A DNA stretch of 64,000 bases from a virus, in the IMG/VR virus record IMGVR_UViG_3300050821_004765, positions 10,239-74,238 of that record. One strand, written 5' to 3'. Positions 5,828 through 42,021 of this stretch are shown here, piece after piece. Under the pieces are notes generated by a model that was given only the letters and a program-made list of their open reading frames with translations, made no database searches and was not told the origin of the DNA. Position numbers and translations under genes: made by a program. The number at the start of each line of letters is the position of its first letter. The stretch's first letter is position 1.

Positions 5828-5844
5828 GGCCTATTTTCGGCCCG

Positions 5845-21878: not shown

Positions 21879-21887
21879 GCAGGTGGC

Positions 21888-22237: not shown

Positions 22238-22318
22238 GATATTCCCTCATTTCAGTTTCGTAGGCAAATTTAAATGCAGGAATAAGGGCGACCAAGGTCG
22301 CCCCTATCACCAGATATA

Positions 22319-22423: not shown

Positions 22424-22428
22424 TTCGG

Positions 22429-22632
22429 TTACGCCACTTTCGCAACTACAGCGAGCGCGTACTCGATTTCAGCAAGTAACGCCGGCATCGTTCGGTAGAT
22501 ACTCACACCACGGCGTACCGCCCGCAAATACGCATCACCTTTCGGGCCGCGTTTCACAGCAGGCACCTTATACTTATCCGCATACGTTTCCGCGCGGGTA
22601 AGCACAGCATTATACATCTCAAGACTCGTCAT
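22429..22632 (-). CDS. hypothetical protein (putative early)
   Basis: GAAAGGTCTCTGAAATG start context; contains no His or Gln. Confidence 0.7.
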   Translation of the reverse strand: MTSLEMYNAVLTRAETYADKYKVPAVKRGPKGDAYLRAVRRGVSIYRTMPALLAEIEYALAVVAKVA

Positions 22633-22685
22633 TTCAGAGACCTTTCCTAGGCACAGGAAAGACGTACCGATTAGTACGCCATACC

Positions 22686-22717
22686 CGAACCGGGGAAACT
22701 TATTCCACCCGGTTCGA
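22686..22717. other. intergenic stem-loop
   Basis: CGAACCGGG...CCCGGTTCG inverted repeat; a second one (GGGCGACC-aa-GGTCGCCC) lies near 22286-22303. Confidence 0.6.
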
Positions 22718-22736
22718 GTAAAGCGCGCTAAGCGGT

Positions 22737-23081
22737 TCAGACTTCGACCGGAATACCGAGCGACTCCAGCAGGGCAATCGCGTCGGCCTTCTTCTTCTCA
22801 GTCCGCTCCGCGTTCTTCTCGGTCCGCTTCGAGGCAGTAACGGCGTTAACCGCGGCCTTCAGTTCCGGCGAACCGTTCTTCCAGGACTGGAACTCGGAGT
22901 GGTACTTAACGACGGCGGCGATCTGATCGGCATCGAGTCCCAGTTCCGGGAAACGCTTCTGGAAGTAAAGCGTTTCCAGAGCGACCGTACCAGTCACCTT
23001 CGCTTCGCTCGCTTCGCCGACAACGCTTTCCAGCTCGGCGATCACATCGGCGTTAGCGGAAACGATTTCAATAGCAGACAT
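22737..23081 (-). CDS. hypothetical protein (putative early), paralog of 5059..5787
   Basis: GAGAGGTCTTTGAAATG start context; high-GC3 host-like codons; HSEFQSW motif. Confidence 0.8.
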   Translation of the reverse strand: MSAIEIVSANADVIAELESVVGEASEAKVTGTVALETLYFQKRFPELGLDADQIAAVVKYHSEFQSWKNGSPELKAAVNAVTASKRTEKNAERTEKKKADAIALLESLGIPVEV

Positions 23082-26780: not shown

Positions 26781-27140
26781 ATGGCAAAAGGTCGAGGACA
26801 AACTGGTAAAGTCAACCTAAGTGCCGCAGCTGGCGCTGACCGCCGTAGTGGAGGCAAGAGCAGTGAGTTCGCCAGAGCCCGCAACGTCAACTCTTTCTCC
26901 GGTAAAGGCTCTACGACAGCGGGCGGCCCAGCTGCTAGTGTCCGTGGAAGCAGCCGTAAGCAACCAGCCTTCAATGGCTCCAATATGTATGGCATTACCG
27001 CCAAGGCTAGCAGCAGCCGAAACACTGGTAGCGCACCTAACGCAGCCCAAGGCAACAGCCGATTTGGCTCAGGCGGGGTAAAGGGCACGCCCAGCACTGT
27101 CAGCAAGGGCAAGACTCGGGGTGGTGGCCGTGGCCGGTAA
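26781..27140 (+). CDS. very basic G/S/K/R-rich low-complexity protein
   Basis: AGGAG SD; MAKGRG...; about 2 acidic residues in 119 aa. Confidence 0.7.
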   Translation: MAKGRGQTGKVNLSAAAGADRRSGGKSSEFARARNVNSFSGKGSTTAGGPAASVRGSSRKQPAFNGSNMYGITAKASSSRNTGSAPNAAQGNSRFGSGGVKGTPSTVSKGKTRGGGRGR

Positions 27141-27525
27141 GGGCAAGAAAATGGTGAAGCCCGGCAAGGGCAAATCCACCTTTGCTAGCAACTCGAGCAC
27201 TAGTAATTCTGCACCCCGTGCACCTGGACCTGCTGGTAAAGGTGGCAATTGGCGCGCAGGTATTGCACAGCACGGTGAAGCAAGTAGCACGCTTGGCATG
27301 GCAAGCCGCCCGTCAAGTAAGAGTCACATTGGTACGCCTGCTGTCCAAGGTTCCAGTACTGCCAATATGGGTGATAATTGCTCTACAAGTGGGCATAATG
27401 CGCCGCGTGGATTCTACGCGAAGAACGCTGCCAAAAAGGGTATACTTGCTGGAGGCAGTACCCCGCTAGCCAAGACTGGGACTCGCAACCCGGCAGCTCA
27501 GGTAACTGGCCCGTACGGGTTCTGA
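27130..27525 (+). CDS. very basic G/S/K-rich low-complexity protein
   Basis: Coupled to the upstream gene; start at 27130 or 27151. Confidence 0.65.
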   Translation: MAGKGKKMVKPGKGKSTFASNSSTSNSAPRAPGPAGKGGNWRAGIAQHGEASSTLGMASRPSSKSHIGTPAVQGSSTANMGDNCSTSGHNAPRGFYAKNAAKKGILAGGSTPLAKTGTRNPAAQVTGPYGF

Positions 27526-27541
27526 TGGAAGGTGGCGACAC

Positions 27542-27931
27542 ATGGCAAGAGGTAAGCGGAGCGGACGCCGCGCAGGCGGTCAGTCCATTGTGAGCGGTAT
27601 GCTTGCTGGCTCGAATGGTGACCTTGTCAGTCAAAGTGGTGGCCGAGCAACGTCGTTCCAATCCACAAATGGATCCAAAAAGAACAAGTATGGCCCTGGA
27701 AGCACTGGAGGCAAGAGTACGGGGACAGGTGGCTGGATTCCTGGCCGGACGTACGCGATTTACGGATCGCAGGGTGACTCCGCAGAAATGCGAAGCGGTC
27801 GCACTAAGACCCCGCAAGCAACCATAAAGACCACAGGCAATACCGGCGCCACTAACGCGAGCATTGTGATGCCGAAGGCGCTTGGGCCTAAGGGCTTTGG
27901 TGGTCAGTATCGGCTATCAAAAGGCTACTGA
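27542..27931 (+). CDS. very basic G/S/T/K/R-rich low-complexity protein
   Basis: GAAGGTGG SD; MARGKRSGRR.... Confidence 0.7.
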   Translation: MARGKRSGRRAGGQSIVSGMLAGSNGDLVSQSGGRATSFQSTNGSKKNKYGPGSTGGKSTGTGGWIPGRTYAIYGSQGDSAEMRSGRTKTPQATIKTTGNTGATNASIVMPKALGPKGFGGQYRLSKGY

Positions 27932-28395
27932 TGATAATTGGTATTTGTGAAGGCGTTTCTGGCGTATTAAATTACACGCCATCATATTGGGATTCGCCTG
28001 AATACCAAAGAGTACACGCCTTGGTGCGCAAACTCTATGGCCCAGCCATTGAATATATTTGCATACAATGTAGTTGTAGTGCCCAAGTTTGGGCCTGGCA
28101 ACACGGTGAAGATCCAAGTTTGCCCAGTAGTTATCAGCCAATGTGTGTATGGTGCCATAGGTATTATGACAATACTCAACAATGGCGTGAAAATATTAGT
28201 TTGGGGCAAATAGGAAATAATAAAGGCCAAGGGATCAATAATGGTAGTGCTAAACTATCTGAAAAAGATGTGCTAGAAATTAGATCACTATATAGCACTG
28301 GCAATTTTAGTCAAACTAATCTTGCCAATATTTATGATGTGAATCAAAGTAGGATAAGTAGTATCGTGACTCGAAGAACTTGGAGACACATCTGA
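27931..28395 (+). CDS. HNH-like homing endonuclease with C-terminal HTH
   Basis: CIQC...H...CVWCHRYYD; NNGSAKLSEKDVLEIR...QTNLANIYDVNQSRISSIV; AT-rich; TGATG overlaps at both ends. Confidence 0.75.
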   Translation: MIIGICEGVSGVLNYTPSYWDSPEYQRVHALVRKLYGPAIEYICIQCSCSAQVWAWQHGEDPSLPSSYQPMCVWCHRYYDNTQQWRENISLGQIGNNKGQGINNGSAKLSEKDVLEIRSLYSTGNFSQTNLANIYDVNQSRISSIVTRRTWRHI

Positions 28396-28736
28396 TGCCA
28401 GTCCACACTCCTGGAGCAATTAATAGCTCCGGCAATGATGACCAGGGTGCGCAGCAGACTAACCTTGCGAAACAGTACCCGAACACTGTCGATACCTTGG
28501 CTGGTATGCAGTACCCCGATATGGGCGGTGGACCAGACAGTAACGCACTACGGTTGCCATACCAGACCGCACACCCGGCCAGTACTCCAGCGGTAAATGA
28601 CCCGGGCTTTGGTGCATACTACTTGAACCAGAGCGACCCGATTGTCGGCACTAAGAAAAACCCAGTGCCGGATTTCCCACAGTATGGGACAAGTCTCAAC
28701 GAGGGCACCACTTACGCCGCACACTCTGAGGAGTAA
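28395..28736 (+). CDS. hypothetical P/Q/N-rich protein
   Basis: GGAG SD; TGATG overlap. Confidence 0.65.
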   Translation: MPVHTPGAINSSGNDDQGAQQTNLAKQYPNTVDTLAGMQYPDMGGGPDSNALRLPYQTAHPASTPAVNDPGFGAYYLNQSDPIVGTKKNPVPDFPQYGTSLNEGTTYAAHSEE

Positions 28737-28738
28737 CC

Positions 28739-29263
28739 ATGGCTAAGCGCAATGGCGCTGCAGGTAAGGGCGTTGGCCCTATGCAGTTTGGTAAAAGCAC
28801 GATTGGCTGGGGCGCGAGTGCTAGTCCTGCGGCTTACGCAATGGGTCGGGCGTACGGGAGTATCCCGACAAGTCGTACTGCGGGAACCCAGCGGTCGGCA
28901 CGGGGCGGTGGCTACCGGCGTATCCTGAACCCGTGGGGCAATAATGTCCCGAAGGCTAGCGCGGTTGGCGCGAATGGTATTGGCCAGAGCAAGTTCCAGC
29001 TAAACTTCAAGGCAGTTGGCGGCCGACGGATGCCAATTCAGGCACCCGACCAGATTCGCATCGACTACCCCGCCAATGACCCGCGTCGTTGGCCTATTGC
29101 CGGCGGCAAGACGTTGATCTTCAACCAGGCTGGGAAGGCGAACCGCCACAACGCCTTGGTGAACCACGCTTATGTGCGTGCTGGATATGGCCAGTACAAT
29201 AGCCCGACGTACTCTGGTACTGACGCGCAGTACGCTGAAGTGCCATACGCACCGAGCGTCTAA
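28739..29263 (+). CDS. basic Gly/Ala-rich protein
   Basis: GAGGAG SD; MAKRNG...; contains WPIAGG. Confidence 0.7.
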   Translation: MAKRNGAAGKGVGPMQFGKSTIGWGASASPAAYAMGRAYGSIPTSRTAGTQRSARGGGYRRILNPWGNNVPKASAVGANGIGQSKFQLNFKAVGGRRMPIQAPDQIRIDYPANDPRRWPIAGGKTLIFNQAGKANRHNALVNHAYVRAGYGQYNSPTYSGTDAQYAEVPYAPSV

Positions 29264-29709
29264 TGGCAGTATTCTTCAATGGTACATTCCTACGGGAATT
29301 GCGGCGTGAAACTGAACGGCACTTTCGCCGTGAAACTGCCGATAGGGGCGTAAGGTCAATTGCCCATGCCATCACTGGATCGTTATCTCCTAGGAATAGT
29401 TTCGCTGGCCTTGGTACTCGGCGTGTTCTCTCTGGCCGCGGTCGAACTCAGGCTCTACGCAGCCCACTTTCTCAGCAAACTGGAACAAGTAAGACCCAGT
29501 ACAGCAGTCCAGGCAACCAGTCAAAATCTAGTGTTGGGCGGGGTCGGAATGCACAAAAAGGACCAACCACAGGCACGAGTGGCACTGCTGGCACACGAGC
29601 GGCAACAAGCGGCACAACTGGGACAAGAGGAACCTCACCAACTAACTTTCAGCGAGTTTCTGCTCGCAAGGCCGCACGAAACCACGGCAAGAAGTATACT
29701 CAATCATGA
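29263..29709 (+). CDS. basic R/T/S/G-rich protein
   Basis: TAATG overlap upstream; ATGA overlap with the terminase. Confidence 0.65.
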   Translation: MAVFFNGTFLRELRRETERHFRRETADRGVRSIAHAITGSLSPRNSFAGLGTRRVLSGRGRTQALRSPLSQQTGTSKTQYSSPGNQSKSSVGRGRNAQKGPTTGTSGTAGTRAATSGTTGTRGTSPTNFQRVSARKAARNHGKKYTQS

Positions 29710-31322
29710 GCTTGCTGGACCCGTGGGCGATCTGGGGACACCAACGTGTTAACTGGCGTCCCCACCAAGATCAAATCAATATTCTCGAGTCTCGAGCAAG
29801 ACACCGAGTTTGGTGTGCTGGTCGACGCACCGGCAAGTCAGACTTGGGCGGTAACTCCCTCTTGCCAGAAGCTTTTTACACAAAGTCTGTCGCAAACGAC
29901 TGGCTCAAGCTCGGTAAGCGCCGTGAATTTTGGATAGTTGGGCCAGAGTATTCTGACTCTGAAAAAGAGTTCCGTGTTATTTACAATAGACTTAAGTCTC
30001 TGCAAGTACCCTTCGACCGCCCCGGGACATATTACGACCCCATCGGGCACAACATGCATATTTCGCTGTGGGAAGGGGCCTTCCAGGTCCACGCTCACTC
30101 TGCCAAATATCCTGACCACCTCGTCGGTGAAGCGCTCTGTGGCGTACTGATGGTAGAAGCCGCAAAGGCTAAGCCGTCAATTTGGCATAAGTACATTCGA
30201 CCAATGCTCAATGACTATAAGGGCTGGTCAATGCATACGAGTACCCCAGAAGGAAAGAACCACTTCTTTGAGAAGTATGAAATGGGACAAGACCCATTTA
30301 ACTCTGAGTGGGAGTCTTGGCGCGTGCCTTCTTGGCACAATCCTTATGTGCATACCATCAGGACTGTCGATGAGCACGTTAAGTTTATGCTTGATATCAT
30401 GGTTGACCACCCCAGCATGTCTGCCGCTAAGATTTGTCGTCAGCACAACCTACAGATAGATAAAGAAATTATCGACTTGGCAGATGATCTGTCCGTCGAA
30501 ATGTTTAAACAGGAGATTGCAGCAGACTTTACCGAATTCGTCGGCCAAGTCTTTAAGGATTACGACGAGGAATATCATGTCGGTAACTTGGAGTTTGAGC
30601 CTGAATGGCAAACGTTTGCTGGCGTTGACTACGGATATACTAACCCCAACGTTTGGCTACTCATACAAGTTGGCCCTTGGGGAGAGATTAATATTCTCGA
30701 TGAAGTGTACGAGCCAGGACTTACGGCTGACCAATTTGCTGAGGAAATTAAGAGACGAGGCCTCAACCCTCCGCAGCTCCGCATCTTTTACCCAGACCCC
30801 GCTGACCCAATGTCCTCAAGGACACTGGAAGACAAGCTTAGGATAAAGGCATCAGGCGGCACCGGCGGGGAGCTGCCAATTCGCATCAACCTAATTCGCG
30901 AGAAATTGCGAAAAGGCCGTATTGATATGAGCCAGAGTGCCTTAAGTGAGCAGAACGCAGATAAATGGCGGCCGCAGTTGATGATTGACCGGAAATGTGC
31001 GCGATTGCGGTCTGATATGATGGCATATCGGTACCCTGAACGCAAGGATGACAAAGAAGATTCCTTGCCACGCTTTGAATTGCCAATGAAAAAGGATGAC
31101 CACGGACCAGAAGCGCTTGGTCGGTTCATGATCGGGTTCTTCGGGGCCGGTGAACTCCATGGTCACGGCGGTACTCGGGTCCGCAAGGGTAATGTGTCAC
31201 GTCGGCACACCCAAAAAACCACACAACGTCAAGATTACCGTTCGGTGTCACCGCCGATGAAGCCATTGAGTAGTATGATTACTACTAAATCAGGCTTTCC
31301 CAACTGGAAGGAATGGCGTTAA
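29706..31322 (+). CDS. terL: terminase large subunit
   Basis: AGRRTGKS Walker A, VLMVEAA Walker B variant, TSTPEG, GVDYGYTNP and DDHGPEALGR nuclease motifs. Confidence 0.93.
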   Translation: MSLLDPWAIWGHQRVNWRPHQDQINILESRARHRVWCAGRRTGKSDLGGNSLLPEAFYTKSVANDWLKLGKRREFWIVGPEYSDSEKEFRVIYNRLKSLQVPFDRPGTYYDPIGHNMHISLWEGAFQVHAHSAKYPDHLVGEALCGVLMVEAAKAKPSIWHKYIRPMLNDYKGWSMHTSTPEGKNHFFEKYEMGQDPFNSEWESWRVPSWHNPYVHTIRTVDEHVKFMLDIMVDHPSMSAAKICRQHNLQIDKEIIDLADDLSVEMFKQEIAADFTEFVGQVFKDYDEEYHVGNLEFEPEWQTFAGVDYGYTNPNVWLLIQVGPWGEINILDEVYEPGLTADQFAEEIKRRGLNPPQLRIFYPDPADPMSSRTLEDKLRIKASGGTGGELPIRINLIREKLRKGRIDMSQSALSEQNADKWRPQLMIDRKCARLRSDMMAYRYPERKDDKEDSLPRFELPMKKDDHGPEALGRFMIGFFGAGELHGHGGTRVRKGNVSRRHTQKTTQRQDYRSVSPPMKPLSSMITTKSGFPNWKEWR

Positions 31323-33037
31323 TGCCAATTGATCCGCGGCAATACGATTCCGCGATTGATTACATTGACTCTGACGCTGAATTCAGTAAGTCTATTGGCA
31401 ATATGGCCAATATGGACGATAAATTACGTATCAAGTGCTATGAACTGTACGAAGATATGTACAATAACCGTCCAGAACATATGCGAGTGGTCCTCCGTGG
31501 AGAGGATGAAGACGCTGTTGAGATCTATATGCCTAGTGCCAAGAAGGTAATTGAGGCAATTACTCGGTTTTTGTGCGTTGGCTGGGACTATTTCATCGAT
31601 GCAAACGTTGGTAGCACCGATGACCAGAGAGATATCGATAATGCACTAGCAAATCTCTTCAAAAAGCAGCATTTTTACCGTAAATTCAACCAAATGAAGC
31701 GGTATATGCTTATGAAAGGGGATGCTTGCTTCCATGTTTTGGGGAAGGATTGGGAGCGTGCAGGCCATCGAATTGCGATTGAAGAGCTAAAGCCAGAACA
31801 CTACTTTCCAATTGAAGACCTTGTAACCGGCGAGCTGATGGGATGCCACATTGTTGACATTATCAGGAACCCCAGAACAACGCCGAATACTAAGCGATAC
31901 GCCCCAGAATACGTTGCTAGACGTCAAACCTATCGCAAAGAGGTCGATGACAACTTGGTGCCGACGGGTCGAATTACGACTGAACTCACACTATGGGAGA
32001 TAGGTCGTTGGGACGACCGCATTCCTTGGCTAGAGCTAGCTTGGGTCGACACCATCACAATGGAAGAGTACCTGCCAGAGGCAATTAACGAATTGCCAGT
32101 GTACCACTTTGCAAATAACCCGCCACCAACGAGCACATTTGGTATGTCAGAGCTGGCGGGGGTCGAAAGCCTCATTAATGCAATAAATCAGGCCATGTCC
32201 GACGAAGATCTGACTTTGATTACCCAAGGTTTGGGGGTGTATTGGACCGATGCAAGTGCACCTAAAGGCGCTGATGGTCAGATTGCTGAGTGGGAAATTG
32301 GCCCCGGTTCAGTCGTTGAGATTGGTGCCGGTGGCAAATTTGGTCGTGTTACTGGCGTTAGCTCTGTCACTCCTTATCTTGAGCATATATTGGCCTTGGA
32401 TGAGTCCCTTCAACAGGCGCTCGGCGTGCCTGATATTGCTATCGGTATGGTGGATGTCGCTACTGCTGAGTCTGGGATCGCGCTAAACTTCAAACTTGGG
32501 CCGATGTTGGCTAAGAATGCTGAAAAAGAGCTATTCATCATTGAAGTGGCTGACAAGCTACTAGAAGACCTGGTCAACGCCTGGTTGCCGGCATATGAAA
32601 ATATTGCAGTTGACGGGATTTCTGTAACGTCAACTGTAGAAGACCCCATTCCCAAGAATGATTCACAGCTACTGCAGGACTTGTTGGGTGTTTGGGGCGA
32701 GTGCAGCGAATATCTGCCGGTTGGCTTCCTATTCCAGCAGTTGAATACCATTATGAATTGGGATCTTACGCATGAGGACTTCATGCAAGCTCTCAAAGAT
32801 CAAACTCTCATTGCTCAAATGCAAGCTGCTGCTAATCCGCAACCTGCACCAGGCGCTGCTGGACCCAATGGTAAACCAGGGGCTGCACCGCCAAAGCCGA
32901 GTGCTGGCGCTAATGCAAGTCAAATTGATAACTTGACGAAGTACACGCAGTCTGAACGGCTAAGTAAGCAAACTGGAATCCGTGGTGGATACAACTCTGC
33001 TGGAGTTTCCGCTGCGCTCTCAAGTGGGGAAATTTAA
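31313..33037 (+). CDS. portal protein
   Basis: Follows TerL; 574 aa; LPVYHFAN...FGMSEL and ESGIAL motifs. Confidence 0.88.
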   Translation: MALMPIDPRQYDSAIDYIDSDAEFSKSIGNMANMDDKLRIKCYELYEDMYNNRPEHMRVVLRGEDEDAVEIYMPSAKKVIEAITRFLCVGWDYFIDANVGSTDDQRDIDNALANLFKKQHFYRKFNQMKRYMLMKGDACFHVLGKDWERAGHRIAIEELKPEHYFPIEDLVTGELMGCHIVDIIRNPRTTPNTKRYAPEYVARRQTYRKEVDDNLVPTGRITTELTLWEIGRWDDRIPWLELAWVDTITMEEYLPEAINELPVYHFANNPPPTSTFGMSELAGVESLINAINQAMSDEDLTLITQGLGVYWTDASAPKGADGQIAEWEIGPGSVVEIGAGGKFGRVTGVSSVTPYLEHILALDESLQQALGVPDIAIGMVDVATAESGIALNFKLGPMLAKNAEKELFIIEVADKLLEDLVNAWLPAYENIAVDGISVTSTVEDPIPKNDSQLLQDLLGVWGECSEYLPVGFLFQQLNTIMNWDLTHEDFMQALKDQTLIAQMQAAANPQPAPGAAGPNGKPGAAPPKPSAGANASQIDNLTKYTQSERLSKQTGIRGGYNSAGVSAALSSGEI

Positions 33038-33816
33038 TGACCATTGTTCTGACTAAACTTATCGAACGACCTGACAATCCATTCCGGCTAGGGCGTCATC
33101 AGGAGCATGATGAACGAGCATGGCACTTTCCAACTCCCTGGAGTAAGCCACAAAACATTAGTAAGTTCTGGACAACCGCCGCTCCCATCTTGGACCAGGG
33201 TAATGTCGGTAGTTGTACAGGAAACACTGTGGTTGACGTTGTCAACACTGACTTGTTTACGCCGATCAGGACAGCAAAAAATCATGGCAATTACCTGGTT
33301 GAAGCCGATGCTCTCAATATCTACTCAAAAGGCACCTATCTCAGTGCTATCGGCGGTGGTCAGACCTATCCACCCGACGACCCAGGTTGTACCGGACCGG
33401 CTGTAGCTAAGGCTGCAGAGGATTTGGGGCTATTTGACAAGTACCTACACTGCTTTAACTGGGATCAATTTTGCGCAACTATTGAGCAAACACCGGTAAT
33501 GCTTGGGACACCGTGGACCCAGCAGATGTTCGACCCTGACCAGGACGGATTCTGTAGAGTTGGCGACATTAATGATAGCACTCTTGCTGGCGGACATGAG
33601 TATATGGGTCGCGCGATTGACTATGAAAACACTCGCGTACTTTGCCGCAACCACTGGAACGCACAGTGGAATCCAGAACAGATTGATCAAAAAGATCCTG
33701 GCGAGTTCTGGCTATCCTTTACTGATCTGCAGTCATTGCTTCAAAATGGTGGCGATGTCACCGTCCCATTCGCAGCAGGTTGCACCCCTCAACAAGGAGT
33801 AAATGAAAATGGCTAA
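33037..33816 (+). CDS. papain-like (C1) cysteine peptidase
   Basis: DQGNVGSCTGN (Gln/Cys), GGHE (His), RNHW (Asn). Confidence 0.85.
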   Translation: MTIVLTKLIERPDNPFRLGRHQEHDERAWHFPTPWSKPQNISKFWTTAAPILDQGNVGSCTGNTVVDVVNTDLFTPIRTAKNHGNYLVEADALNIYSKGTYLSAIGGGQTYPPDDPGCTGPAVAKAAEDLGLFDKYLHCFNWDQFCATIEQTPVMLGTPWTQQMFDPDQDGFCRVGDINDSTLAGGHEYMGRAIDYENTRVLCRNHWNAQWNPEQIDQKDPGEFWLSFTDLQSLLQNGGDVTVPFAAGCTPQQGVNENG

Positions 33817-33982
33817 GCCGAATGCAAAAGCAAAGCTCGGGTCTGGCGGACGTTTTGCCGCTGTCGCCAAGTCAGCTGGCGGGGGCAAGAAGGGTGCAGC
33901 TATTGCTGCAGCCGTAGGTCGTAAGAAATATGGTGCTAAGAAAATGGGTGCCATGGCCGCAAAGGGCCGCAAGAAGAAGTGA
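33809..33982 (+). CDS. 57-aa K/A/G-rich basic protein (not in ORF track)
   Basis: MAKPNAKAKLGSGGRFAAVAKSAGGGKKGAAIAAAVGRKKYGAKKMGAMAAKGRKKK; AAGGAG SD; GTGA overlap downstream. Confidence 0.75.
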   Translation: MAKPNAKAKLGSGGRFAAVAKSAGGGKKGAAIAAAVGRKKYGAKKMGAMAAKGRKKK

Positions 33983-34743
33983 CTTACGTTTGGTACGTTG
34001 GTAATGCTAACGTCCGAACAATCACAGTTGTTGATTGGTCGTCAATTGGCATCACTGTTACCGGGGATACTACTTGGGACCAAGATAATGGTTGGTCAGT
34101 GCCAACATCATCACTTTCTGGTCCACAACTCACCTATTTAGAGTCAGAAACTTCATTCGTCACCGGGCAAACGGATGCAGAACGTCCAACACCGGCAGTA
34201 AATAATGATGGTGGCGGTTCATCTGGGCTACCTGCATCGCAAAATACCGGCACGAAATTTCTTTGTGACTCTATTTCATGGCAACCAGTAATTGGTGCTA
34301 ATGTTGAGACTACAGTAACTTTCACTGTTAGTGGTTCTACATACACTGAAACAGAATCTGTTGATGCAGCAATATCATATGCTTATAATCTTGCATTCTA
34401 TGCCGTTAATCTTGCACAGTCTGGTGTAGCATATAGCATACAAAATGTGCTAACTGGTGCATCCGCTACTGAAATGTCTGGCGCTTACTGTGGACTTGGG
34501 GTTTCAAATATTGTCGACCCTCAAGGCCAAGTCTGTACACTATCCATAGGATTACAAGTCAATAGCGGTATTCTAGCCGGCATGATTTCTCGGTGGCTGG
34601 TTGTCAGCGCCGGTACAGTAGAATTTACTATGGAGTCTGGTGTTACAATTAAAAGTGTTACTGGAGCAGCAACGATGACCCAAATGGGCGTAGCAACTTT
34701 CTATTGCCTAGGCAATGACGAATGGCTCTTGGATATTACATGA
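33979..34743 (+). CDS. putative virion structural protein
   Basis: N-terminal 60 aa resemble 40307..40657; beta-rich C-domain. Confidence 0.65.
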   Translation: MTYVWYVGNANVRTITVVDWSSIGITVTGDTTWDQDNGWSVPTSSLSGPQLTYLESETSFVTGQTDAERPTPAVNNDGGGSSGLPASQNTGTKFLCDSISWQPVIGANVETTVTFTVSGSTYTETESVDAAISYAYNLAFYAVNLAQSGVAYSIQNVLTGASATEMSGAYCGLGVSNIVDPQGQVCTLSIGLQVNSGILAGMISRWLVVSAGTVEFTMESGVTIKSVTGAATMTQMGVATFYCLGNDEWLLDIT

Positions 34744-35009
34744 CTATGGTAAAGCGCGCTATGAAGGCTGCCGGGCACTACCCACCAGGTACAATACCGG
34801 GTCAGCCAGCTGCTGGGCATCATCCATTCAAATCTCAAGCCCAATGGAGGTTATTCTTTGCTAACCCCAAGCTTCGTCGTTGGGCCATTGGTAAGGCGCA
34901 CGCAACTGGTGGGCATCACGAAATCACCCAGAGGCTCAAATATAGTCCGGCATATCGGAGTCTCCCTGATCGTAAGCTTTCGACAATTCAGCGAGTACCA
35001 ATTCGATGA
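34740..35009 (+). CDS. basic hypothetical protein
   Basis: PFKSQAQWRLFFA motif; ATGA overlaps at both ends. Confidence 0.65.
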   Translation: MTMVKRAMKAAGHYPPGTIPGQPAAGHHPFKSQAQWRLFFANPKLRRWAIGKAHATGGHHEITQRLKYSPAYRSLPDRKLSTIQRVPIR

Positions 35010-35389
35010 ACTTCACTTACCACCGGGTTGAGCCGCGCACCATTTCTAAATACCAAGCTAGAATTCTCAAGAGAATTGCGCACTCTGAATTGCCAATCGA
35101 AGCCTGTGGAGTAATATTACGCGATGGCACCATCGTGGAATACCCGAATACTTGTCCAAATCCAGAGCATGGCTTCGATTTTGCAGCGCAATTGAACCAT
35201 AATATCAAAGCTATTTGGCACTCACATCCAAATGGACTTACCACACCTAGTGACGATGACTTACCAATGATCGAAACGCTCGCCAGGCGGGGTTTCAATT
35301 GTCATCACCTTATTGTAACTGCAGAAAATGTCTATGAATACGCGGCAGATTTTAGTCAAGTAGCTTCCGCGTCTCAGTGTCAAACGTAG
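35006..35389 (+). CDS. JAB/MPN (Mov34) metalloprotease
   Basis: EACG...WHSHPNG..TPSDDD, an intact JAMM motif. Confidence 0.9.
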   Translation: MNFTYHRVEPRTISKYQARILKRIAHSELPIEACGVILRDGTIVEYPNTCPNPEHGFDFAAQLNHNIKAIWHSHPNGLTTPSDDDLPMIETLARRGFNCHHLIVTAENVYEYAADFSQVASASQCQT

Positions 35390-35430
35390 TAAAGTATCTG
35401 TCAACTACCGTTTATTAGGAGTTAGCTAAA

Positions 35431-36219
35431 ATGCGCCAGAGTCCAGACTTTATTGTCGATGAGACCGAATTTGATGCGTTTCTGTTCCATTTTTGGGGTG
35501 GTGATGGTGATCGCGACGACGATGACGTCGATGACGACGATGACAGCTCTGACTCCGACGATGAAGATGATTCTGATGAGTCTGATGATGATGACTCTGA
35601 CAATGATGATGACGATGATGACGACGGCAGTAATGCTGGAAGATCGACTACGAAAAAGCCTGGGAGTAAAGACACTCAGGATGATGATGACGCCGAAGCT
35701 GATGCAGATAAGCTTAAAGCAGAGAATATCAAGCTCAAGCGCGCTCTTGATGCTGAAAAAGATAAAAACAAAGTTAGCACTAAGGGCAAGACCAAGCTTG
35801 AGCGTGATTACAACGCGATGAAGACTCGTGCCTCCAAGCTCGAAAATTTCATGCAGACCACATACATCGACGCAGCCATCGTCAAGGACGTTCGGTATGC
35901 TTGGAACAACATCGAAGATGTGCGACTCAACATCAAGGATTCAGCTATTCGCCTGGACATGGAAACCGGTGAAATCGAAGGCTTGGATCTTGAACTCAAG
36001 CGTATTGCAAAAGCCAAGCCATATCTTCTCAAGAAGAAGGCAACGCGTGAAGACTCCGATGACGATCAGGGCGATGGAAATGGTCGCCAAGGGAATCCGG
36101 GAAATCGTCGTCAAAGTGGTGCCCATCCTTTTGGCGGTCGTACAAAAACTGATGGAAAAGATCGTGCACGTATTGCAAGTAAGTACAAAATCCCTGGCGT
36201 TCCCGGGATTACAGGATAG
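35431..36219 (+). CDS. capsid scaffolding protein
   Basis: Poly-Asp N-region, coiled coil, KAKPYL motif; upstream of the capsid genes; AGGAG SD. Confidence 0.8.
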   Translation: MRQSPDFIVDETEFDAFLFHFWGGDGDRDDDDVDDDDDSSDSDDEDDSDESDDDDSDNDDDDDDDGSNAGRSTTKKPGSKDTQDDDDAEADADKLKAENIKLKRALDAEKDKNKVSTKGKTKLERDYNAMKTRASKLENFMQTTYIDAAIVKDVRYAWNNIEDVRLNIKDSAIRLDMETGEIEGLDLELKRIAKAKPYLLKKKATREDSDDDQGDGNGRQGNPGNRRQSGAHPFGGRTKTDGKDRARIASKYKIPGVPGITG

Positions 36220-36233
36220 GGGAAAGGCAAAAG

Positions 36234-36932
36234 ATGGCTCGCTATGACAAGTATGACCCGATCAACGGGGGATTCCGTGCTGCGGTAGCCGTTGACTTTC
36301 CCGATGGCGATCTAGGTGCTGCTTGGGGCTATGGCATTAACTCTGCCGGACAGTGTGTCAAGGGCGCAGGACAGACCGGCGTTATTGGCGTTCTGGTCGT
36401 CACCCAGAAGCCGGGTCGTGTTGGTCCGCAGCGGGAAATCACCACTGTTGACATCATGCAGGTTGGTTGCATTACGGACTTTGGGCCTTCTACCTATGGC
36501 AATGTGCCCGGTGTGAACTTTGGTAATGCCGGTACTAACTACTACAGTGACGCAAATGGCTTTATCTCGGCGAGTCAGACTGACTTGTCCGTTCAGACCG
36601 TTACGGTTGGTGCAGCTAGTGCCGGTACTTTCACGCTAACTTACGGTGGTCAGACGACCACTGCGATTGCCTACAACGCCTCTGCAGCTACTGTACAGGC
36701 TGCACTGGTTGCTTTGAGTTCGATCGGTGCTGGCAATGCGGTTGTTACGAGCCCGTCCGCTGGGATTTGGGTAATTTCCCTCTCCAACGCCTTGGAAGAG
36801 TCTGTCGCTTTGGGGGCATTTACCGGCGCAGGCTCGGGTTTGACTGGCGGAGCGTTTGCCGTTAGTAGCTCAAAGGGTGTGCTTGTTGGCTTTACGGTCG
36901 AAACTGACCGCTTGCAAGTTACGATGTCTTAA
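36234..36932 (+). CDS. capsid decoration / minor capsid protein with inserted beta-rich module
   Basis: MARYDKYDP... between scaffold and MCP; insert shared with the major tail protein. Confidence 0.7.
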   Translation: MARYDKYDPINGGFRAAVAVDFPDGDLGAAWGYGINSAGQCVKGAGQTGVIGVLVVTQKPGRVGPQREITTVDIMQVGCITDFGPSTYGNVPGVNFGNAGTNYYSDANGFISASQTDLSVQTVTVGAASAGTFTLTYGGQTTTAIAYNASAATVQAALVALSSIGAGNAVVTSPSAGIWVISLSNALEESVALGAFTGAGSGLTGGAFAVSSSKGVLVGFTVETDRLQVTMS

Positions 36933-36953
36933 TAAGAAGCTGAAAGGACAACA

Positions 36954-38129
36954 ATGCTGAAGGAAAGTTTGCTTTTCCGCTTCTGGGGCGGCGACGGTAA
37001 CCGTTCTGGTTACATGACTGAGGGTGATATCCTCACCCATACAGTCGATGGCGTCGACCTAAACCAGCTCTGGGCTGAGTTTATTGATGCCAATACCATC
37101 TATAACGAGCACAAGCAGGGTATGGTCGGTTTGCTGACCTACCCGGTGCTCTCGGACATTGAACTTGTCCCCCAGATCGGTGACTTCAACTTTGAAGAGG
37201 CAACCGAGTTCGGTATCCCTCGTGGTCAGAACACCAACATCAGCTACTACCAGCTGGCGTATGACTACAAGGACTATGACCTCAAGTTGGGCTACACCTG
37301 GAAGTTCTTGCGTGATGCCCCCGCCCAGCAGGTTGAGGCTATTCACACTAAGGCAATCCAGGCCGACCAGGCCCTGGTGTTCCGCAAGACGATGGAAGCT
37401 ATTTTCTACAACGTCTCGCGAACTACCATCATCAACTCCATGCAGTACAAGGTGTCGCCGTTGGCGAACGCCGATGGTTGGGTACCGCCTAGCTACAAGG
37501 GCGTGGTGTTCGATGGTACGCACGACCACTACATCACTACTGGTGGTAGCGTTGTCGACTCTGGCGACGTTGAGGACTGCGTCAACCACCTAACCGAACA
37601 CGGTTATGGTTGGGATACTGGTACCCAGATCGTTGCATTCTGCAACCGGTCGGAAATCAACCAGATCCGCACCTTCCGTTTTGGTCAGACTAACAACAAC
37701 TCGGTTGTTGCGAACTTCGACTTCGTGCCGGCACTTGGCCAGCCCGCGTTGATTGTTCCTAACGCTGAAGGTCTGTTGGGTGGTCAGGCGCCTGCGGTCT
37801 GGAATGGCCTGCGTGTATCTGGTTCTTACATGGACGTTCTGTTTGTGGAAGAGCCGCTAATGCCTCCCGGTTACATGATGTTCCTATCCACCGGTGGCGT
37901 CAACACCGACGAGAACATCGTGGGTGTGCGCGAGCACGTTTCACCGGAATGGCGGGGTTTGCGGTTGCTGCCGGGTAACCAGCAGCGCTACCCACTGGTG
38001 GATGGCTACTACATCCACGGCTTTGGTACTGGTATTCGTCGGCGTACTGGCGCTCTGGTTTGCCAGGTGTCTACCAACGGTAGCTACACGCCGCCTGCGC
38101 AGTACACCAACAACGGGGCGACTCGATGA
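36954..38129 (+). CDS. major capsid protein
   Basis: 391 aa; strong codon bias; FEEATEFG; position after the scaffold. Confidence 0.85.
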   Translation: MLKESLLFRFWGGDGNRSGYMTEGDILTHTVDGVDLNQLWAEFIDANTIYNEHKQGMVGLLTYPVLSDIELVPQIGDFNFEEATEFGIPRGQNTNISYYQLAYDYKDYDLKLGYTWKFLRDAPAQQVEAIHTKAIQADQALVFRKTMEAIFYNVSRTTIINSMQYKVSPLANADGWVPPSYKGVVFDGTHDHYITTGGSVVDSGDVEDCVNHLTEHGYGWDTGTQIVAFCNRSEINQIRTFRFGQTNNNSVVANFDFVPALGQPALIVPNAEGLLGGQAPAVWNGLRVSGSYMDVLFVEEPLMPPGYMMFLSTGGVNTDENIVGVREHVSPEWRGLRLLPGNQQRYPLVDGYYIHGFGTGIRRRTGALVCQVSTNGSYTPPAQYTNNGATR

Positions 38130-38527
38130 GCAGGGCTTCTCTGCAGGATATCCAGAACCTCGGTCGTCGTTTGACGACTGAGGAGGAGCGATACTTGCAA
38201 GCCCGTAGTCGCGGTTGGGAAATTGAGGTCAACCATCGTCAGCATCCCAAAAAGGATGACGCGCTTATTCCAAGCGATGATGAAGAATTTGTACTGACGG
38301 TTGGCGATGACGATGATGAAGCCGAAGATGCCCAGCTTGCTGCTGGCGATGACGTAGCTGATGATGCGACCGCCAAGTACGAGCAGGCACTTGTTGCTCA
38401 AGTCAAGGGCTTGAGTGTCAAGGACTTGAAAGCTGAGTTGCAAGAACGTACCATCATCTACTCGCGTAGCGATTTGAAGAAGGACTTGCAGCTCAAATTG
38501 CTTGAGGCTGTTAGCAACGAAGCATAG
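38126..38527 (+). CDS. hypothetical protein with C-terminal HeH/SAP-like motif
   Basis: LSVKDLKAELQER......KKDLQLKL. Confidence 0.6.
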   Translation: MSRASLQDIQNLGRRLTTEEERYLQARSRGWEIEVNHRQHPKKDDALIPSDDEEFVLTVGDDDDEAEDAQLAAGDDVADDATAKYEQALVAQVKGLSVKDLKAELQERTIIYSRSDLKKDLQLKLLEAVSNEA

Positions 38528-38535
38528 GGGTTACC

Positions 38536-38925
38536 TTGGCGACCCAACAGGCGATTGCATCTGTACAGCAGTATCTGCCGTCTTGGGCCAGCACATTACC
38601 TGCAAACCCTTGGACGACTGAAACTATCAGCAATACACTTGACACCAATTGTGGTGATGTGTACAAGACAGTTCGAGCATTCTGGGTACAGCGGGTTAGC
38701 GATCTGCAACCCTTGACAGATGTTCGCGAAGCTGACAGTGGGCGTCCATTGTCCCAGAACTTTGATCATGCATTTAAGATGCTAACTTACTGGGATGCTT
38801 ATCTTGAGACATCTCACGAGACCAAGTTCACCAAGATAAAGCGGCGGTACCGCAAGCCACGCCCAGGCATTCTTATTGGGGTCGACCCATTTGGCTTTGG
38901 AAGTCCGTATGCCAGGACTGATTAG
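38536..38925 (+). CDS. head-to-tail adaptor (by synteny)
   Basis: Position and size. Confidence 0.55.
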   Translation: MATQQAIASVQQYLPSWASTLPANPWTTETISNTLDTNCGDVYKTVRAFWVQRVSDLQPLTDVREADSGRPLSQNFDHAFKMLTYWDAYLETSHETKFTKIKRRYRKPRPGILIGVDPFGFGSPYARTD

Positions 38926-39325
38926 TATCCAGAATGCCGAACTTGCATTTGTCACGCAAGAGTATATCAACGAGCTACCAACCACGATAACCCTCACTCC
39001 GTCACGTGGCACGCCTGTCCTCAAGGCTAGCGGCGGTCACGACTATACACCGGCTACGCCGCGCGCTCCGCAGGTCTTTCGGGTCGTTCCTCGGCCCTCC
39101 CCAGCCGGGACCGAAGAGACTCAGGACGGCCCAAATTTCGTCAAAAAGTACGGCTATACCCTAGTTGGCATGCCAAATTCCATTGTAGCATTTGGAGACG
39201 TCTGGGATGAGACTACAGAAGATGGTACAAACCTTCATTACCACGTTGATGAAGTAATGCCCGCTACTGGCTGGGACTTTCGTGCCAATGTTACATGCTA
39301 TGCTACGGAGCCGCAGCATGGCTAA
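38909..39325 (+). CDS. head-to-tail stopper (by synteny)
   Basis: Beta-rich; position. Confidence 0.55.
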   Translation: MPGLISIQNAELAFVTQEYINELPTTITLTPSRGTPVLKASGGHDYTPATPRAPQVFRVVPRPSPAGTEETQDGPNFVKKYGYTLVGMPNSIVAFGDVWDETTEDGTNLHYHVDEVMPATGWDFRANVTCYATEPQHG

Positions 39326-39863
39326 TGTCGAGTTCAGTTGGGATACCGCAAGCTCAACGGCTTTGCAAACGAGATTCCAGAATCTGCCAGAAGAAATTGA
39401 CGTAAAAATGGTCACTTTCTTGGAGCAACTCGCACCAAAAGCCGAGACAGAAATGAAAGTCCGTGCTCCTTGGCGTAACTGGACTTGGGATGCTCGAAAC
39501 GGACTGTTTGTTGAGCCGGTAGTGCTCGGTTTGCCAGGCGGGGTTCGTGAATATAGCTTGATATTTGGCCATACTGTTGATTATGGTATATATTTGGAAA
39601 CTATCGTCAATGGTAAGTATCAGATCATTATGCCAATGGTTAAAGCGACCGGCGAAACGATTATGCAAGCCCTTGGCGGTCTTCTTGGGCCTTATGGGGC
39701 TATGGAAATTGGCGAGATTAAGCCCGAACTGTATTCTGGCGGCACCTCAGAGACTGTTGGACGCGAAATCATGCATCTATTGCGTAATTATAAGCGCAAT
39801 GTAAAGCAACACTTTGGCAACAACGCCTACTACCCGCGTGCAGCACCTAGGTGGTCGCGATGA
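39318..39863 (+). CDS. neck protein (HK97 gp10-like)
   Basis: APW...T.DARNGL, HTVDYGIYLE, IIMP motifs. Confidence 0.65.
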   Translation: MANVEFSWDTASSTALQTRFQNLPEEIDVKMVTFLEQLAPKAETEMKVRAPWRNWTWDARNGLFVEPVVLGLPGGVREYSLIFGHTVDYGIYLETIVNGKYQIIMPMVKATGETIMQALGGLLGPYGAMEIGEIKPELYSGGTSETVGREIMHLLRNYKRNVKQHFGNNAYYPRAAPRWSR

Positions 39864-40306
39864 GTAGAGCTGTTGTATTTAGTGTACTATCAAATTCCAC
39901 TAAATTACAAAACCTTGGATTCACCAGTGGATATATTCTCCCCAACTATGATGGTGACCAACGTCCCAATATTAGCATCAACCAAAACAACCCATTCTTT
40001 ATGGTCTTACGCTGGGGCGCGCAACGCTTTGATCCGCGCTTCTATCGTGGACCGCGCACTCTTGACATTTGGGTGCATATGGCTCGCGAAATTAGTACAG
40101 ATTATAGTCGAATTGACGCTGTGATTGAGATAATTGATCCGCTGTTAACAGGTATAATTGATACGCCTGGAGCCGACGGACAATCTGTTACTTCAATTGA
40201 GATGATGGGGCGAAGTGTCGATTTAGAAGACCCAGTATATCAGACACTTTGTCGTAATGCTTCTTATAAGATCATATCGAGGAACACAACTACAGGAGCT
40301 GAGTAA
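39860..40306 (+). CDS. tail terminator (by synteny)
   Basis: Position before the major tail protein; IWVH...DY..ID motif. Confidence 0.6.
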   Translation: MSRAVVFSVLSNSTKLQNLGFTSGYILPNYDGDQRPNISINQNNPFFMVLRWGAQRFDPRFYRGPRTLDIWVHMAREISTDYSRIDAVIEIIDPLLTGIIDTPGADGQSVTSIEMMGRSVDLEDPVYQTLCRNASYKIISRNTTTGAE

Positions 40307-40657
40307 ATGTCTCAACTTGTTATCCCGAAGCCAGATGTGCATTTGAATGCCAATGTAGCAGTCAACCGTCGCGCTGCCGACCCTGAGAAGGCCAAGGGCC
40401 CATTTGTCAAGTATGTGGGTATTGCATCCAAGCGTCTGATTCGCTCGGATCACTGGCGGAGTAAGGGCATCGATCTCAAAGATTCGAGTGCTTCCCACAC
40501 ATGGGACATTAAGAACAAGCACATGATTCCAACCTCAGAGTTTTCCAACGAGCAGCTGGATTACTTGCTGGTCGATGATTTGCAAGCGAAGGGCGGCCAT
40601 AGCTTCCTTGAAGTTGATTACAATGATGAAGGACAACTTGTTCAGGTAAAGCACTAA
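40307..40657 (+). CDS. putative virion protein
   Basis: AGGAG SD; similar to the N-terminus of 33979..34743. Confidence 0.65.
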   Translation: MSQLVIPKPDVHLNANVAVNRRAADPEKAKGPFVKYVGIASKRLIRSDHWRSKGIDLKDSSASHTWDIKNKHMIPTSEFSNEQLDYLLVDDLQAKGGHSFLEVDYNDEGQLVQVKH

Positions 40658-40660
40658 CCA

Positions 40661-40864
40661 ATGGACGAACCGCTTGAGATGCGGTGCAATACACTGCACG
40701 GTATTGTCAAGAACGGTTTAATCGAAATAAAGTGTCACTATATTAAATGCACCAAAGGCAAAGCGGTCAACGTATTTCACTACTTTGATCCTAAGACCGG
40801 TGATTTGGTAGATACCAAAGTCTATCAAGATCCAGTACCAAAGATGAAAGGACGCAAGCGATGA
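40661..40864 (+). CDS. small Com-like zinc-ribbon protein
   Basis: EMRC..LHG....IEIKC...KC. Confidence 0.55.
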   Translation: MDEPLEMRCNTLHGIVKNGLIEIKCHYIKCTKGKAVNVFHYFDPKTGDLVDTKVYQDPVPKMKGRKR

Positions 40865-42021
40865 CCGCTCCTGTGCCTGATCCGTTGCCGTACGGTATTC
40901 GGCAGATTATGCTCACACCGTACCTGGATGTTCAGGGCACAATGTTGAGCACGCAGAGTTACCCCCTGCCTGTCGCTATGACTCTAGGTTTCTCTGAAAC
41001 TGAACAGTTCGATGAACTTCGTGGTGATGACAAGCTTGTAGCAGTGCACGGCCGTGGCCCACAGGTCGACTGGTCGTTGGAGTCCGGCGGTATGAATATG
41101 GTGGCCTGGTCCATTATCACCGGTGGCTCCGTTGTAGAGTCCGGTGTCGCACCGAACCGCCAGGTTGCTCTACAGAAGTCTTGGGATGACGAGCGGCCAT
41201 ACTTCCGCATCGATGGTCGGATCATTTCTGACTCGGGTGGTAACGTCGTGGCCCGCATCTACCGCGCTAAGGCCAATGGTAAGATCCAGGCCAACCACAA
41301 GAACGGCGCATTCCAGACCAGCCAGATTGATGGTATCGGCCTGCCGTTGGTTAATGACGACGCTTCTTGGCTGTATGAAATTGTACAGAACGAGACCGAT
41401 TCGCCCCTGTCGGGTACGCCGACCCCCAACCCGGTCCCCATTCCCACTAACGTCTATGTTGGTGTTATCACCAATACAACCGTGGCGCTGTCCTGGACTG
41501 ACATCATTGAGGCGTCGCAATACCTCGTTCAGCAGTCCATCGACGGCGGAGTAACTTGGACTGCCGTGCCTGCGGGTACAAATGCGGTGCAGACGGTAAC
41601 GCTTGCCAACGCGACTGGTGGTACCTTCACCCTGACGTTTGGTGGACAGACCACTGTACCGATCGCTTATAACGCAAGCGCTGCTACTGTGCAGTCCGCT
41701 TTGATGGCGCTGTCTTCGATTGGCGCCAATAACGTTGTCGTATCGCTGACTGGTTCTGTGTACACCGTCACTTTCGATGACGCACTTGGTGACGCAGCTC
41801 AGACCTTGATGACGGATTCGGCGACTGGCTTGACGGGTAGTTCGCCTACTATCACCATTGCTACCGCAACTGCCGGTACTTCTGGCGGCGGTCAGCCAAC
41901 CGAGCCGTTTACTACCATCACCGGATTGACTGCTAATACACATTACCAGTTCCAGGTGGCCGCGGTCGTTAACAGCGTAACTGGCGAATACTGCACCCCG
42001 GTACTTGCTTTGACTACTTAA
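40861..42021 (+). CDS. major tail protein with C-terminal FN3 domain
   Basis: LPYGIRQI, ELRGDD; FN3 PTNV..VALSW...ITGLTANTHYQFQVAA; precedes the chaperones. Confidence 0.85.
   Translation: MTAPVPDPLPYGIRQIMLTPYLDVQGTMLSTQSYPLPVAMTLGFSETEQFDELRGDDKLVAVHGRGPQVDWSLESGGMNMVAWSIITGGSVVESGVAPNRQVALQKSWDDERPYFRIDGRIISDSGGNVVARIYRAKANGKIQANHKNGAFQTSQIDGIGLPLVNDDASWLYEIVQNETDSPLSGTPTPNPVPIPTNVYVGVITNTTVALSWTDIIEASQYLVQQSIDGGVTWTAVPAGTNAVQTVTLANATGGTFTLTFGGQTTVPIAYNASAATVQSALMALSSIGANNVVVSLTGSVYTVTFDDALGDAAQTLMTDSATGLTGSSPTITIATATAGTSGGGQPTEPFTTITGLTANTHYQFQVAAVVNSVTGEYCTPVLALTT

Follow-up and report, generated by a model that had tools for sequence, protein, structure and literature searches.

We believe that the head proteins of an uncultivated virus are probably trimmed by an enzyme related to those that process ubiquitin tails. 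The window, by which we mean the whole stretch of 64,000 nucleotides analysed here, covers positions 10,239 to 74,238 of the IMG/VR virus record IMGVR_UViG_3300050821_004765, a complete genome of 74,238 bp with direct terminal repeats. The scaffolding protein and the major capsid protein (MCP) of this phage begin with leaders that end alike in Gly-Gly, and a small JAB/JAMM zinc metalloprotease is encoded just 5' of the scaffold gene. The comparative evidence leads us to consider it probable that this JAB is a phage-encoded leader peptidase, cutting the MCP and scaffold leaders after Gly-Gly. We would also argue, at slightly better than an even chance, for a broader statement: that the family of capsids resembling that of mycobacteriophage Patience uses head-maturation proteases of the deubiquitinase type, usually a minimal JAB/JAMM, a BubE-type DUF6527 protein in one lineage and possibly HExxH zincins, to remove a propeptide like the ubiquitin tail (K-L-R-I-W-G-G, for example, against L-R-L-R-G-G) from capsid and scaffold. 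Head-maturation proteolysis is a textbook step in the assembly of tailed phages and herpesviruses. To our knowledge the enzymes known to carry it out are serine proteases of a few folds and one host cysteine protease, Prp.

The leader in this phage is plain to see. Scaffold residues 17-28 (FLFHFWGGDGDR) and MCP residues 6-17 (LLFRFWGGDGNR) are identical at 10 of 12 positions, giving LF.FWGGDG.R. Since the codons differ at 6 of the 10 identical residues, the leader is conserved at the protein level; nucleotides 35479-35508 encode FLFHFWGGDG in the scaffold and nucleotides 36969-36998 encode LLFRFWGGDG in the MCP. Both genes have a Shine-Dalgarno-like site 7-9 nucleotides 5' of the ATG. The best ungapped BLOSUM62 score between MCP residues 1-30 and scaffold residues 1-60 is 60, against a mean of 18.4 (standard deviation 3.3, maximum 37) in 2,000 shuffles, and the next-best N-terminus among the 193 open reading frames (ORFs) of the window scores 29. 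Scaffold and MCP are the only head proteins with an xWGG-type pattern; the window holds one more, an unrelated LWGG at about 60.7 kb. An earlier reading of this DNA, made from the letters and their translations and called here the sequence-only reading, had claimed that the two proteins share LFxFWGGDG with different codons, and translation, codon comparison and shuffles all confirm it.

The same reading would have been in trouble if the motif were missing from related phages. Instead the leader is family-wide, specific to each clade and matched within each phage. Our sample was 80 IMG/VR loci with relatives of the MCP, two further scans and nine cultured phages, about 100 related loci overall. 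At nearly all loci with both N-termini on the contig, scaffold and MCP have a common leader end, placed mostly 4-8 residues before the N-arm of the MCP (GY.T.GD) and directly before the acidic region of the scaffold, an acidic low-complexity region that follows the leader in the window as well. The motif varies by clade, yet the two proteins of any one phage agree in it. The window clade has RIWGG, Onyinye VRGG and RFGDG, the Patience clade PIFGG and cluster D GLSG/HD (a slash inside a motif marks the cut), and other clades have PFGGE, IYGAE, IKGSE, or IRGAD and ISGAE. In general hydrophobic or aromatic residues are followed by Gly, seldom replaced, and by a final Gly, Ala or Ser, after which comes the cut. 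The longer leaders share a second element, L.DL..LG[LIV][FV]. Phages of a single host, M. smegmatis, differ in their motif (PIFGG/T, LSG/HD, VRGG/EG), a diversity easier to reconcile with an enzyme that is phage-encoded and co-evolves than with a single host enzyme. The six residues that close the leader of the window clade ([LF]-R-I-W-G-G) match the L-R-L-R-G-G of ubiquitin at 5 of 6 positions; we treat this resemblance between short sequences as a lead and not as a test. A third substrate was sought by looking for the P4-P1 tetrapeptide of each MCP leader in all ORFs of its own locus, and in the context of head proteins only scaffold and MCP came back. The few other matches are in very long ORFs, a long way downstream of the head genes, and appear to be chance ones.

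Published data on Patience and Adjutor fit a cut of capsid and scaffold at the motif, and these are data from relatives, not from this phage. In infected cells the N-terminus of Patience gp21 lies at residue 35, a non-tryptic position; gp21 is on the list of N-acetylated proteins, and only three gp21 spectra came from virions (Pope et al. 2014). We find that gp21 is the homologue of the scaffold and that residue 35 is the Thr immediately after PIFGG. The cryo-electron microscopy (cryo-EM) model of the Patience MCP begins at Thr20 and that of the Adjutor MCP at Asn28 (Podgorski et al. 2025, PMC11965321). Thr20 directly follows PIFGG, the same motif as in gp21, and Asn28 is three residues past the LSG common to the Adjutor scaffold and MCP. 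As far as sequence comparison goes, the gp21 N-terminus and the start of the Patience capsid model fit cleavage directly behind the PIFGG that both proteins have. In our alignment G12-G13 of the window MCP fall on G18-G19 of Patience, and on this basis the mature MCP is predicted to start at D14 and the mature scaffold at D25. The sequence-only reading had proposed a mature MCP starting DGNRSG, and the alignment to Patience agrees. The Patience papers draw no link between the leader, the gp21 N-terminus, the cryo-EM start and the JAB.

What could make this cut? The sequence-only reading had recognised no HK97-type serine prohead protease, and none was detected: at E<=0.1 nothing in the complete genome of 74,238 bp matches Peptidase_S78, ClpP or S49, and the ORFs between portal and MCP match no prohead-protease family in Pfam or PHROG. 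That reading had instead seen an intact papain-like peptidase and an intact JAMM enzyme between portal and scaffold. Both catalytic sets are indeed complete, the papain assignment resting on residues and fold with no Pfam match. The JAB matches PF14464 (Prok-JAB) with 39.5 bits (cut-off 25, E 6e-10), which was confirmed on the whole genome, and has the full motif of a Glu followed by H-x-H-x7-S-x2-D (E32, H72, H74, S82, D85). Among 49 distinct JAB homologues H72, H74 and D85 are present in all 49, E32 in 98% and S82 in 96%. Its AlphaFold2 model (predicted local distance difference test, pLDDT, 92.9; predicted template-modelling score 0.84) places it in the MPN fold: the top Foldseek matches are PfJAMM1 of Pyrococcus furiosus (a minimal deubiquitinase-type enzyme; 5LD9/5LDA), Rpn11, CSN5 and AMSH, the best E being only 8e-4 with a template-modelling score of about 0.55. 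Pfam and PHROG matches of the neighbouring ORFs suggest no cognate beta-grasp ubiquitin-like protein (Ubl), and no dedicated search for the beta-grasp fold was made.

A further argument for the JAB is the company it keeps. In most relatives it lies just 5' of the MuF and scaffold genes. In the tree of our first scan, with 63 distinct MCPs, JAB and leader occur together in 44 and JAB without leader in 0, and no later locus showed a JAB without a leader. Across the relatives the JAB tracks the leader and the papain-like enzyme does not. We also predicted a complex of JAB, zinc and MCP residues 1-45. The median score was 0.41 (runs 0.56, 0.28 and 0.41) with the best control at 0.01, graded as 'weak support'; the partner had a pLDDT of 41-48, the runs agreed to at least 47% and no interface was given. 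Of the 80 solved complexes and 110 mismatched pairs used to calibrate the tool, 58 and 2, respectively, made the mark. Both of these mismatches, but only 7 of the solved complexes, did so with 0.60 or less, and a pass of this kind is rated as more often wrong than right unless the guess is already likely. The prediction is evidence neither way.

The papain-fold cysteine peptidase encoded after the portal gene deserves consideration as the leader protease of this phage. It sits in the classical position of a prohead protease, its start overlapping the portal stop, and it keeps that position in six close-relative loci (L006, L010, L017, L028, L029, L031); several viral cysteine proteases cut after Gly-Gly. 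The 259-residue protein has no Pfam match even at E<=1 (Peptidase_C1 included) and no sequence match in the PDB. Nevertheless Q54, C60, H187, N205 and W207 are invariant in 8 homologues, in the order found in papain, and although the AlphaFold2 model has a pLDDT of only 77.5, Foldseek places it with xylellain (3OIS, E 1e-8) and with falcipain, papain and cathepsins (E about 1e-6 to 1e-5), among 249 matches at E<=0.001. The catalytic set and the fold speak for this candidate; its distribution does not. It is absent from L008, L011, L013, L015, L016 and Onyinye, which have the same RIWGG-type leader and are fully covered from portal to MCP, and it is likewise missing where the head regions of Patience, Hawkeye and Gibbin are sequenced. 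In other phages its homologues lie at the far genome end (in Barnyard and other mycobacteriophages of about 70 kb) or beside a holin, and are annotated as cysteine protease or putative lysin. We rejected it as the leader protease on this distribution and give the idea very little credence. With many leader-bearing relatives lacking it and its position varying among other phages, the gene behaves as a mobile accessory gene, and the enzyme is probably an accessory one.

Not every lineage has a leader. About seven scattered ones lack it (the L024 clade, L041/L042, L033, L081, L110, L113 and L127), each with leader-bearing sisters; the L024 clade alone is eleven loci (L022, L024, L026, L027, L096-L098, L101, L105-L107). 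In these lineages the first MCP residue falls no more than a few residues from the predicted mature N-terminus, and the scaffold opens with the acidic region itself. Wherever the stretch from portal to MCP is covered, these lineages have no JAB or other recognisable protease, and the L110 record, which is 86% complete, has no JAB anywhere. No complete genome of a leaderless isolate was found: the isolates nearest to L041 and L081 reach only about 54% MCP identity, and the contigs of the L024 clade are at most 31 kb. MuF was considered as another correlate of the leader and dropped, with leader and JAB but no MuF in the window and in L023 and L028, and MuF but no leader or JAB in L041 and L081.

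It could be argued that the leader stays uncut in this phage as a retained assembly signal, for example a chaperone- or portal-binding peptide, and that the JAB is associated with it by gene linkage only. There is a precedent in staphylococcal phage 80alpha, where the scaffold leader is required for assembly and its cleavage is dispensable. But the motif is precisely where the Patience scaffold homologue has its non-tryptic N-terminus, and the Patience MCP leader shows no density. The leaderless relatives, by beginning near the predicted mature N-terminus, imply that the leader is dispensable for the mature fold. We consider an uncut leader highly improbable.

Some phages have a leader and no JAB, and these bear on the family as a whole. 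In L067 (3778-4116) and L068 (7453-7743) a DUF6527 protein takes the JAB's place, immediately before MuF, with scores of 36.8 and 40.2 bits against PF20137 (cut-off 23.6). Four Cys, a Ser (CHSF) and a His (C-T-H) are invariant in 4 phage homologues; we match the Ser and His to the published S92 and H102 on their pattern and not on an alignment with BubE. DUF6527 has been identified as BubE, a Ser-His protease that has a C4 zinc finger and is reported to cut peptide as well as isopeptide bonds of the Ubl BubA, the C-terminal Gly of which is predicted at the BubE active site; in type II Bub operons DUF6527 is the peptidase where JAB is absent (10.1101/2024.11.21.623953). Two further cases involve HExxH proteins. 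L115 is a complete 58.7-kb genome with a leader and with neither JAB nor DUF6527 anywhere; between MuF and scaffold (5086-6333) it encodes a 415-residue protein with a HEMAH motif, no Pfam match, and language-model look-alikes labelled metalloprotease or Pro-Pro endopeptidase. L111, also leader-bearing and JAB-less, has in the JAB's place (3321-3812) a 164-residue HExxH protein that has no Pfam match and is unrelated to the L115 protein. From sequence, the rule would be that leader-bearing phages encode a protease of one sort or another and leaderless ones do not, with L112 and L114 as exceptions. As a separate observation, 231 genomes of cultured phages have DUF6527 genes with no assigned function; the hosts are mostly Gram-negative, and examples are Vi01-like Salmonella phages, jumbo Erwinia phages and RcapMu.

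It is important to set out what weighs against a JAB-type leader peptidase. Concerning the cut itself, the start of a cryo-EM model is where density begins, and disorder could explain such starts instead of cleavage. A different cleavage of the Patience MCP, at 82/83, has been proposed together with a 35-kDa band (Pope et al. 2014). Residues 25-97 of this protein, gp23 (L004, 9561-10763), contain no Lys or Arg; tryptic mass spectrometry cannot see them, and this is the likely origin of the 82/83 call, which the cryo-EM model from Thr20 contradicts. All this suggests that the published 82/83 assignment is wrong, although the assignment of the 35-kDa gel band is not accounted for. Concerning the distribution, most leaderless records are fragments and a JAB can lie elsewhere, so its absence from a fragment is weaker than it appears. 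In Shrew, Wollypog and Krampus, which are distant cultured phages with leaders, a JAB-like gene lies outside the head module, the Krampus match being weak. L112 and L114, both short contigs, have leaders but no recognised protease, and the case for the HExxH proteins of L111 and L115 consists of the motif and the language-model look-alikes. The JAB-like gene of Wollypog is a 358-residue ORF (L090 record, 55 kb; L094, 910-1983) in which a large insertion separates the Glu-bearing N-terminal part from the HxH-S-D part.

The remaining objections lead to a host protease. Such an enzyme may remove the leader, as Prp does in 80alpha, the precedent for host processing of a leader shared by capsid and scaffold; JAB and the DUF6527 of L067 and L068 would then be otherwise engaged, for instance in stripping host Ubl conjugates, put on by Bil, Bub or CBASS-Cap2 defences, from virion proteins during assembly. 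The G-[GAS] site is kept whether a phage has a JAB, a DUF6527 protein, an HExxH protein or nothing recognised, and a site type that persists with unrelated replacement enzymes could point to a common host protease. JAB and DUF6527 are moreover known Ubl-deconjugating enzymes of defence-type operons, and both are accessory genes at other positions in unrelated phages; in the present head modules, too, they could serve another purpose such as counter-defence. What a host protease leaves unexplained is the joint loss of leader and JAB in several independent lineages, and also the presence, in JAB-less phages with a leader, of another head-module protease so often. The motifs are plainly different among phages of one host strain, and the window JAB matches the defence-system JAB models (NCBIfam, PADLOC) only weakly and locally, around HxH. 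We regard host processing as unlikely, while giving it more weight than the other alternatives. The sequence-only reading had left three candidates open, the JAB, the papain-like peptidase and a host protease, and proposed to look at the co-occurrence of motif and proteases across phages. That comparison speaks for the JAB, which co-occurs with the leader, and against the papain-like peptidase; a host protease is disfavoured. Its general idea, that head proteins are processed after Gly-Gly by an enzyme of the ubiquitin-tail type, is supported by the family-wide motif, the Patience N-terminus and the co-occurrence of the JAB.

The scheme we favour, with the JAB as leader peptidase, would run as follows. 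Scaffold and MCP would be made as precursors with N-terminal leaders of 24 and 13 residues, whose nearly identical ends resemble the C-terminal tail of ubiquitin in having a hydrophobic residue, then a basic or aromatic one, then Gly-Gly. The JAB would bind the extended leader tail as JAMM enzymes bind the tail of ubiquitin and hydrolyse the linear peptide bond after G-[G/A/S] on both precursors, leaving a mature MCP that would start at D14 and a mature scaffold that would start at D25. The leader may, by analogy with 80alpha, hold both assembly partners in a common pre-assembly state. We infer the JAB as the enzyme, the time at which it acts (before or inside the procapsid) and the role of the leader.

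Comparison with known systems makes clear what would be new. In 80alpha, as here, capsid and scaffold share an N-terminal motif and no HK97-type prohead protease is involved. There, however, the enzyme is the host cysteine protease Prp, whose other task is the maturation of ribosomal protein L27, and it cuts at F/A; this phage family does not have the F/A site of L27 and Prp, the site being G-[GAS]/x and not FF/A, the motif varies among the phages of one host, and the candidate enzyme is a phage-encoded JAB/JAMM. By analogy the two systems would be functionally alike, save that here the phage would encode the enzyme, one of the JAB family, and the site would be of the Gly-Gly type. JAMM enzymes cleave linear extensions after Gly-Gly. 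The minimal JAMM/MPN+ enzymes that process Ubl tails (PfJAMM1 with the Ubl SAMP2, Rpn11, CSN5, AMSH and CBASS Cap3) have the same fold and the same E/HxH/S/D zinc site as the window JAB, although sequence identity to the solved JAMMs is below 20%. They differ in that here no beta-grasp Ubl domain precedes the proposed site, and a short propeptide without structure, carried by two virion assembly proteins, would serve as substrate. The DUF6527 proteins of L067 and L068 resemble BubE in that they pass the Pfam cut-off and keep the four Cys, the Ser and the His, and they stand where relatives have the JAB; unlike in Bub operons, no E1, E2 or Ubl genes lie near these phage copies, and the window itself has no DUF6527. 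The classical prohead proteases (HK97 gp4/S78, ClpP-like S14, lambda C/S49, T4 gp21) are likewise encoded between portal and capsid and likewise remove an N-terminal part of the MCP, but they are serine proteases of assemblin or ClpP fold, whereas here only 13 MCP residues, not a delta domain, are predicted to be removed. Close parallels are Patience (cluster U) and Adjutor (cluster D), whose MCPs are 48-53% identical to that of the window and which have minor capsid protein, scaffold and JAB in the same order. The window phage differs in being uncultivated, in its 74-kb genome, in lacking a MuF-like gene and in having the added papain-fold peptidase. As to annotations, Patience gene 19 is called 'protease' by position, Adjutor gp11 'putative metal protease', and homologues 'metalloprotease', 'tail protein' or 'hypothetical'.

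The head module occupies 29.7-38.1 kb on the + strand, from the large terminase through the MCP, and its features are collected in the table.

Features of the head module of the window, with predicted leaders and cut sites (window coordinates)
Feature	Position	Strand	Basis or remark
Large terminase	5' of portal, start of head module (29.7-38.1 kb)	+	
Portal protein, 574 aa	31313..33037	+	phrog_64 E 4e-47; Pfam SPP1_portal E 1.6e-10
Divergent papain-fold cysteine peptidase, 259 aa	33037..33816	+	phrog_16701 'peptidase' E 8e-36; start overlaps portal stop
Very basic Gly/Ala/Lys-rich protein, 59 aa	33803..33982	+	ORF; no family match
254-aa protein, no assigned function	33979..34743	+	weak matches only, phrog_14208 E 2e-5
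Basic protein, 95 aa, Patience gp10 / Adjutor gp10 type	34722..35009	+	phrog_1375 E 1e-6
JAB/JAMM (MPN+) zinc metalloprotease, 127 aa, proposed leader peptidase	35006..35389	+	PF14464 39.5 bits
Scaffolding protein precursor, 262 aa	35431..36219	+	phrog_4866 E 1e-26; Pfam Phage_scaffold E 3e-5, below cut-off
Scaffold leader, residues 1-24, end FWGG, predicted cut G24/D25 (nt 35502/35503)	35431..35502	+	shared motif; homology to Patience gp21
Minor capsid (decoration) protein, 232 aa	36234..36932	+	phrog_5042 E 1e-42
MCP precursor, 391 aa, Patience-like HK97-fold family	36954..38129	+	phrog_3990 E 3e-144
MCP leader, residues 1-13, end FWGG, predicted cut G13/D14 (nt 36992/36993)	36954..36992	+	alignment to Patience

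The nearest cultured relatives are the Mycobacterium phages Onyinye, Leopard and Aikoy, with 78% MCP identity, and in the PDB the MCP matches the two solved structures of the family, 8SAJ (Adjutor, E 1.5e-141) and 8GIU (Patience, E 7e-117). The minor capsid protein is homologous to the entries of that name in Onyinye, Gibbin, Hawkeye, Patience and Adjutor. The 95-residue basic protein is kept beside the JAB in relatives (tblastn matches at many loci), and homologues of the 59-residue basic protein are found 3' of the portal gene in L024, L026 and L027. Most relatives have a MuF-like gene between JAB and scaffold; none was found in the window (27000-42000), and it is likewise missing from the leaderless L024 clade. 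On the MuF-like or neighbouring head proteins of relatives we observed C-terminal domains of the toxin type (L110, 3329-4834; L089, 3770-5188; L001 gene 16), among them a papain-fold glutamine deamidase domain in L110 and an ADP-ribosyltransferase in Krampus gp14 and Onyinye gene 16. The 254-residue protein of the window resembles, over its N-terminal 55 or so residues, a 116-residue ORF at 40307-40657 (42% identity, E 7e-7). The minor capsid protein and a 386-residue protein that is probably the major tail protein (40861-42021) have in common a domain of about 90 residues with 53% identity (tblastn E 8e-20); from this likeness it appears that one surface module is displayed on both head and tail. 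Near 22 kb (21000-23000) the AT skew flips sign and the GC content goes from about 0.49 to 0.56, which is consistent with a switch in transcription direction between genome arms.

We found no paper in our literature search that ties JAB/JAMM enzymes to the maturation of phage heads. If our interpretation is true, JAB/JAMM would be a fourth mechanistic class of prohead protease, and JAMM enzymes would gain a class of substrate that is purely structural and not a Ubl. The interpretation reconciles two observations on Patience, the odd N-terminus of gp21 and the missing first 19 residues of the capsid protein. If true, it would also explain the genes now called 'metalloprotease', 'tail protein' or 'hypothetical' in sequenced actinobacteriophages, well above a hundred of them (clusters D, H, R and U, Gordonia phages and others). 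JAB, DUF6527 and HExxH proteins seem to take one another's place in the head module, which would then be a natural experiment on the co-evolution of a protease with its cleavage site, and the assembly of these virions would be linked to the prokaryotic roots of ubiquitin-tail processing.

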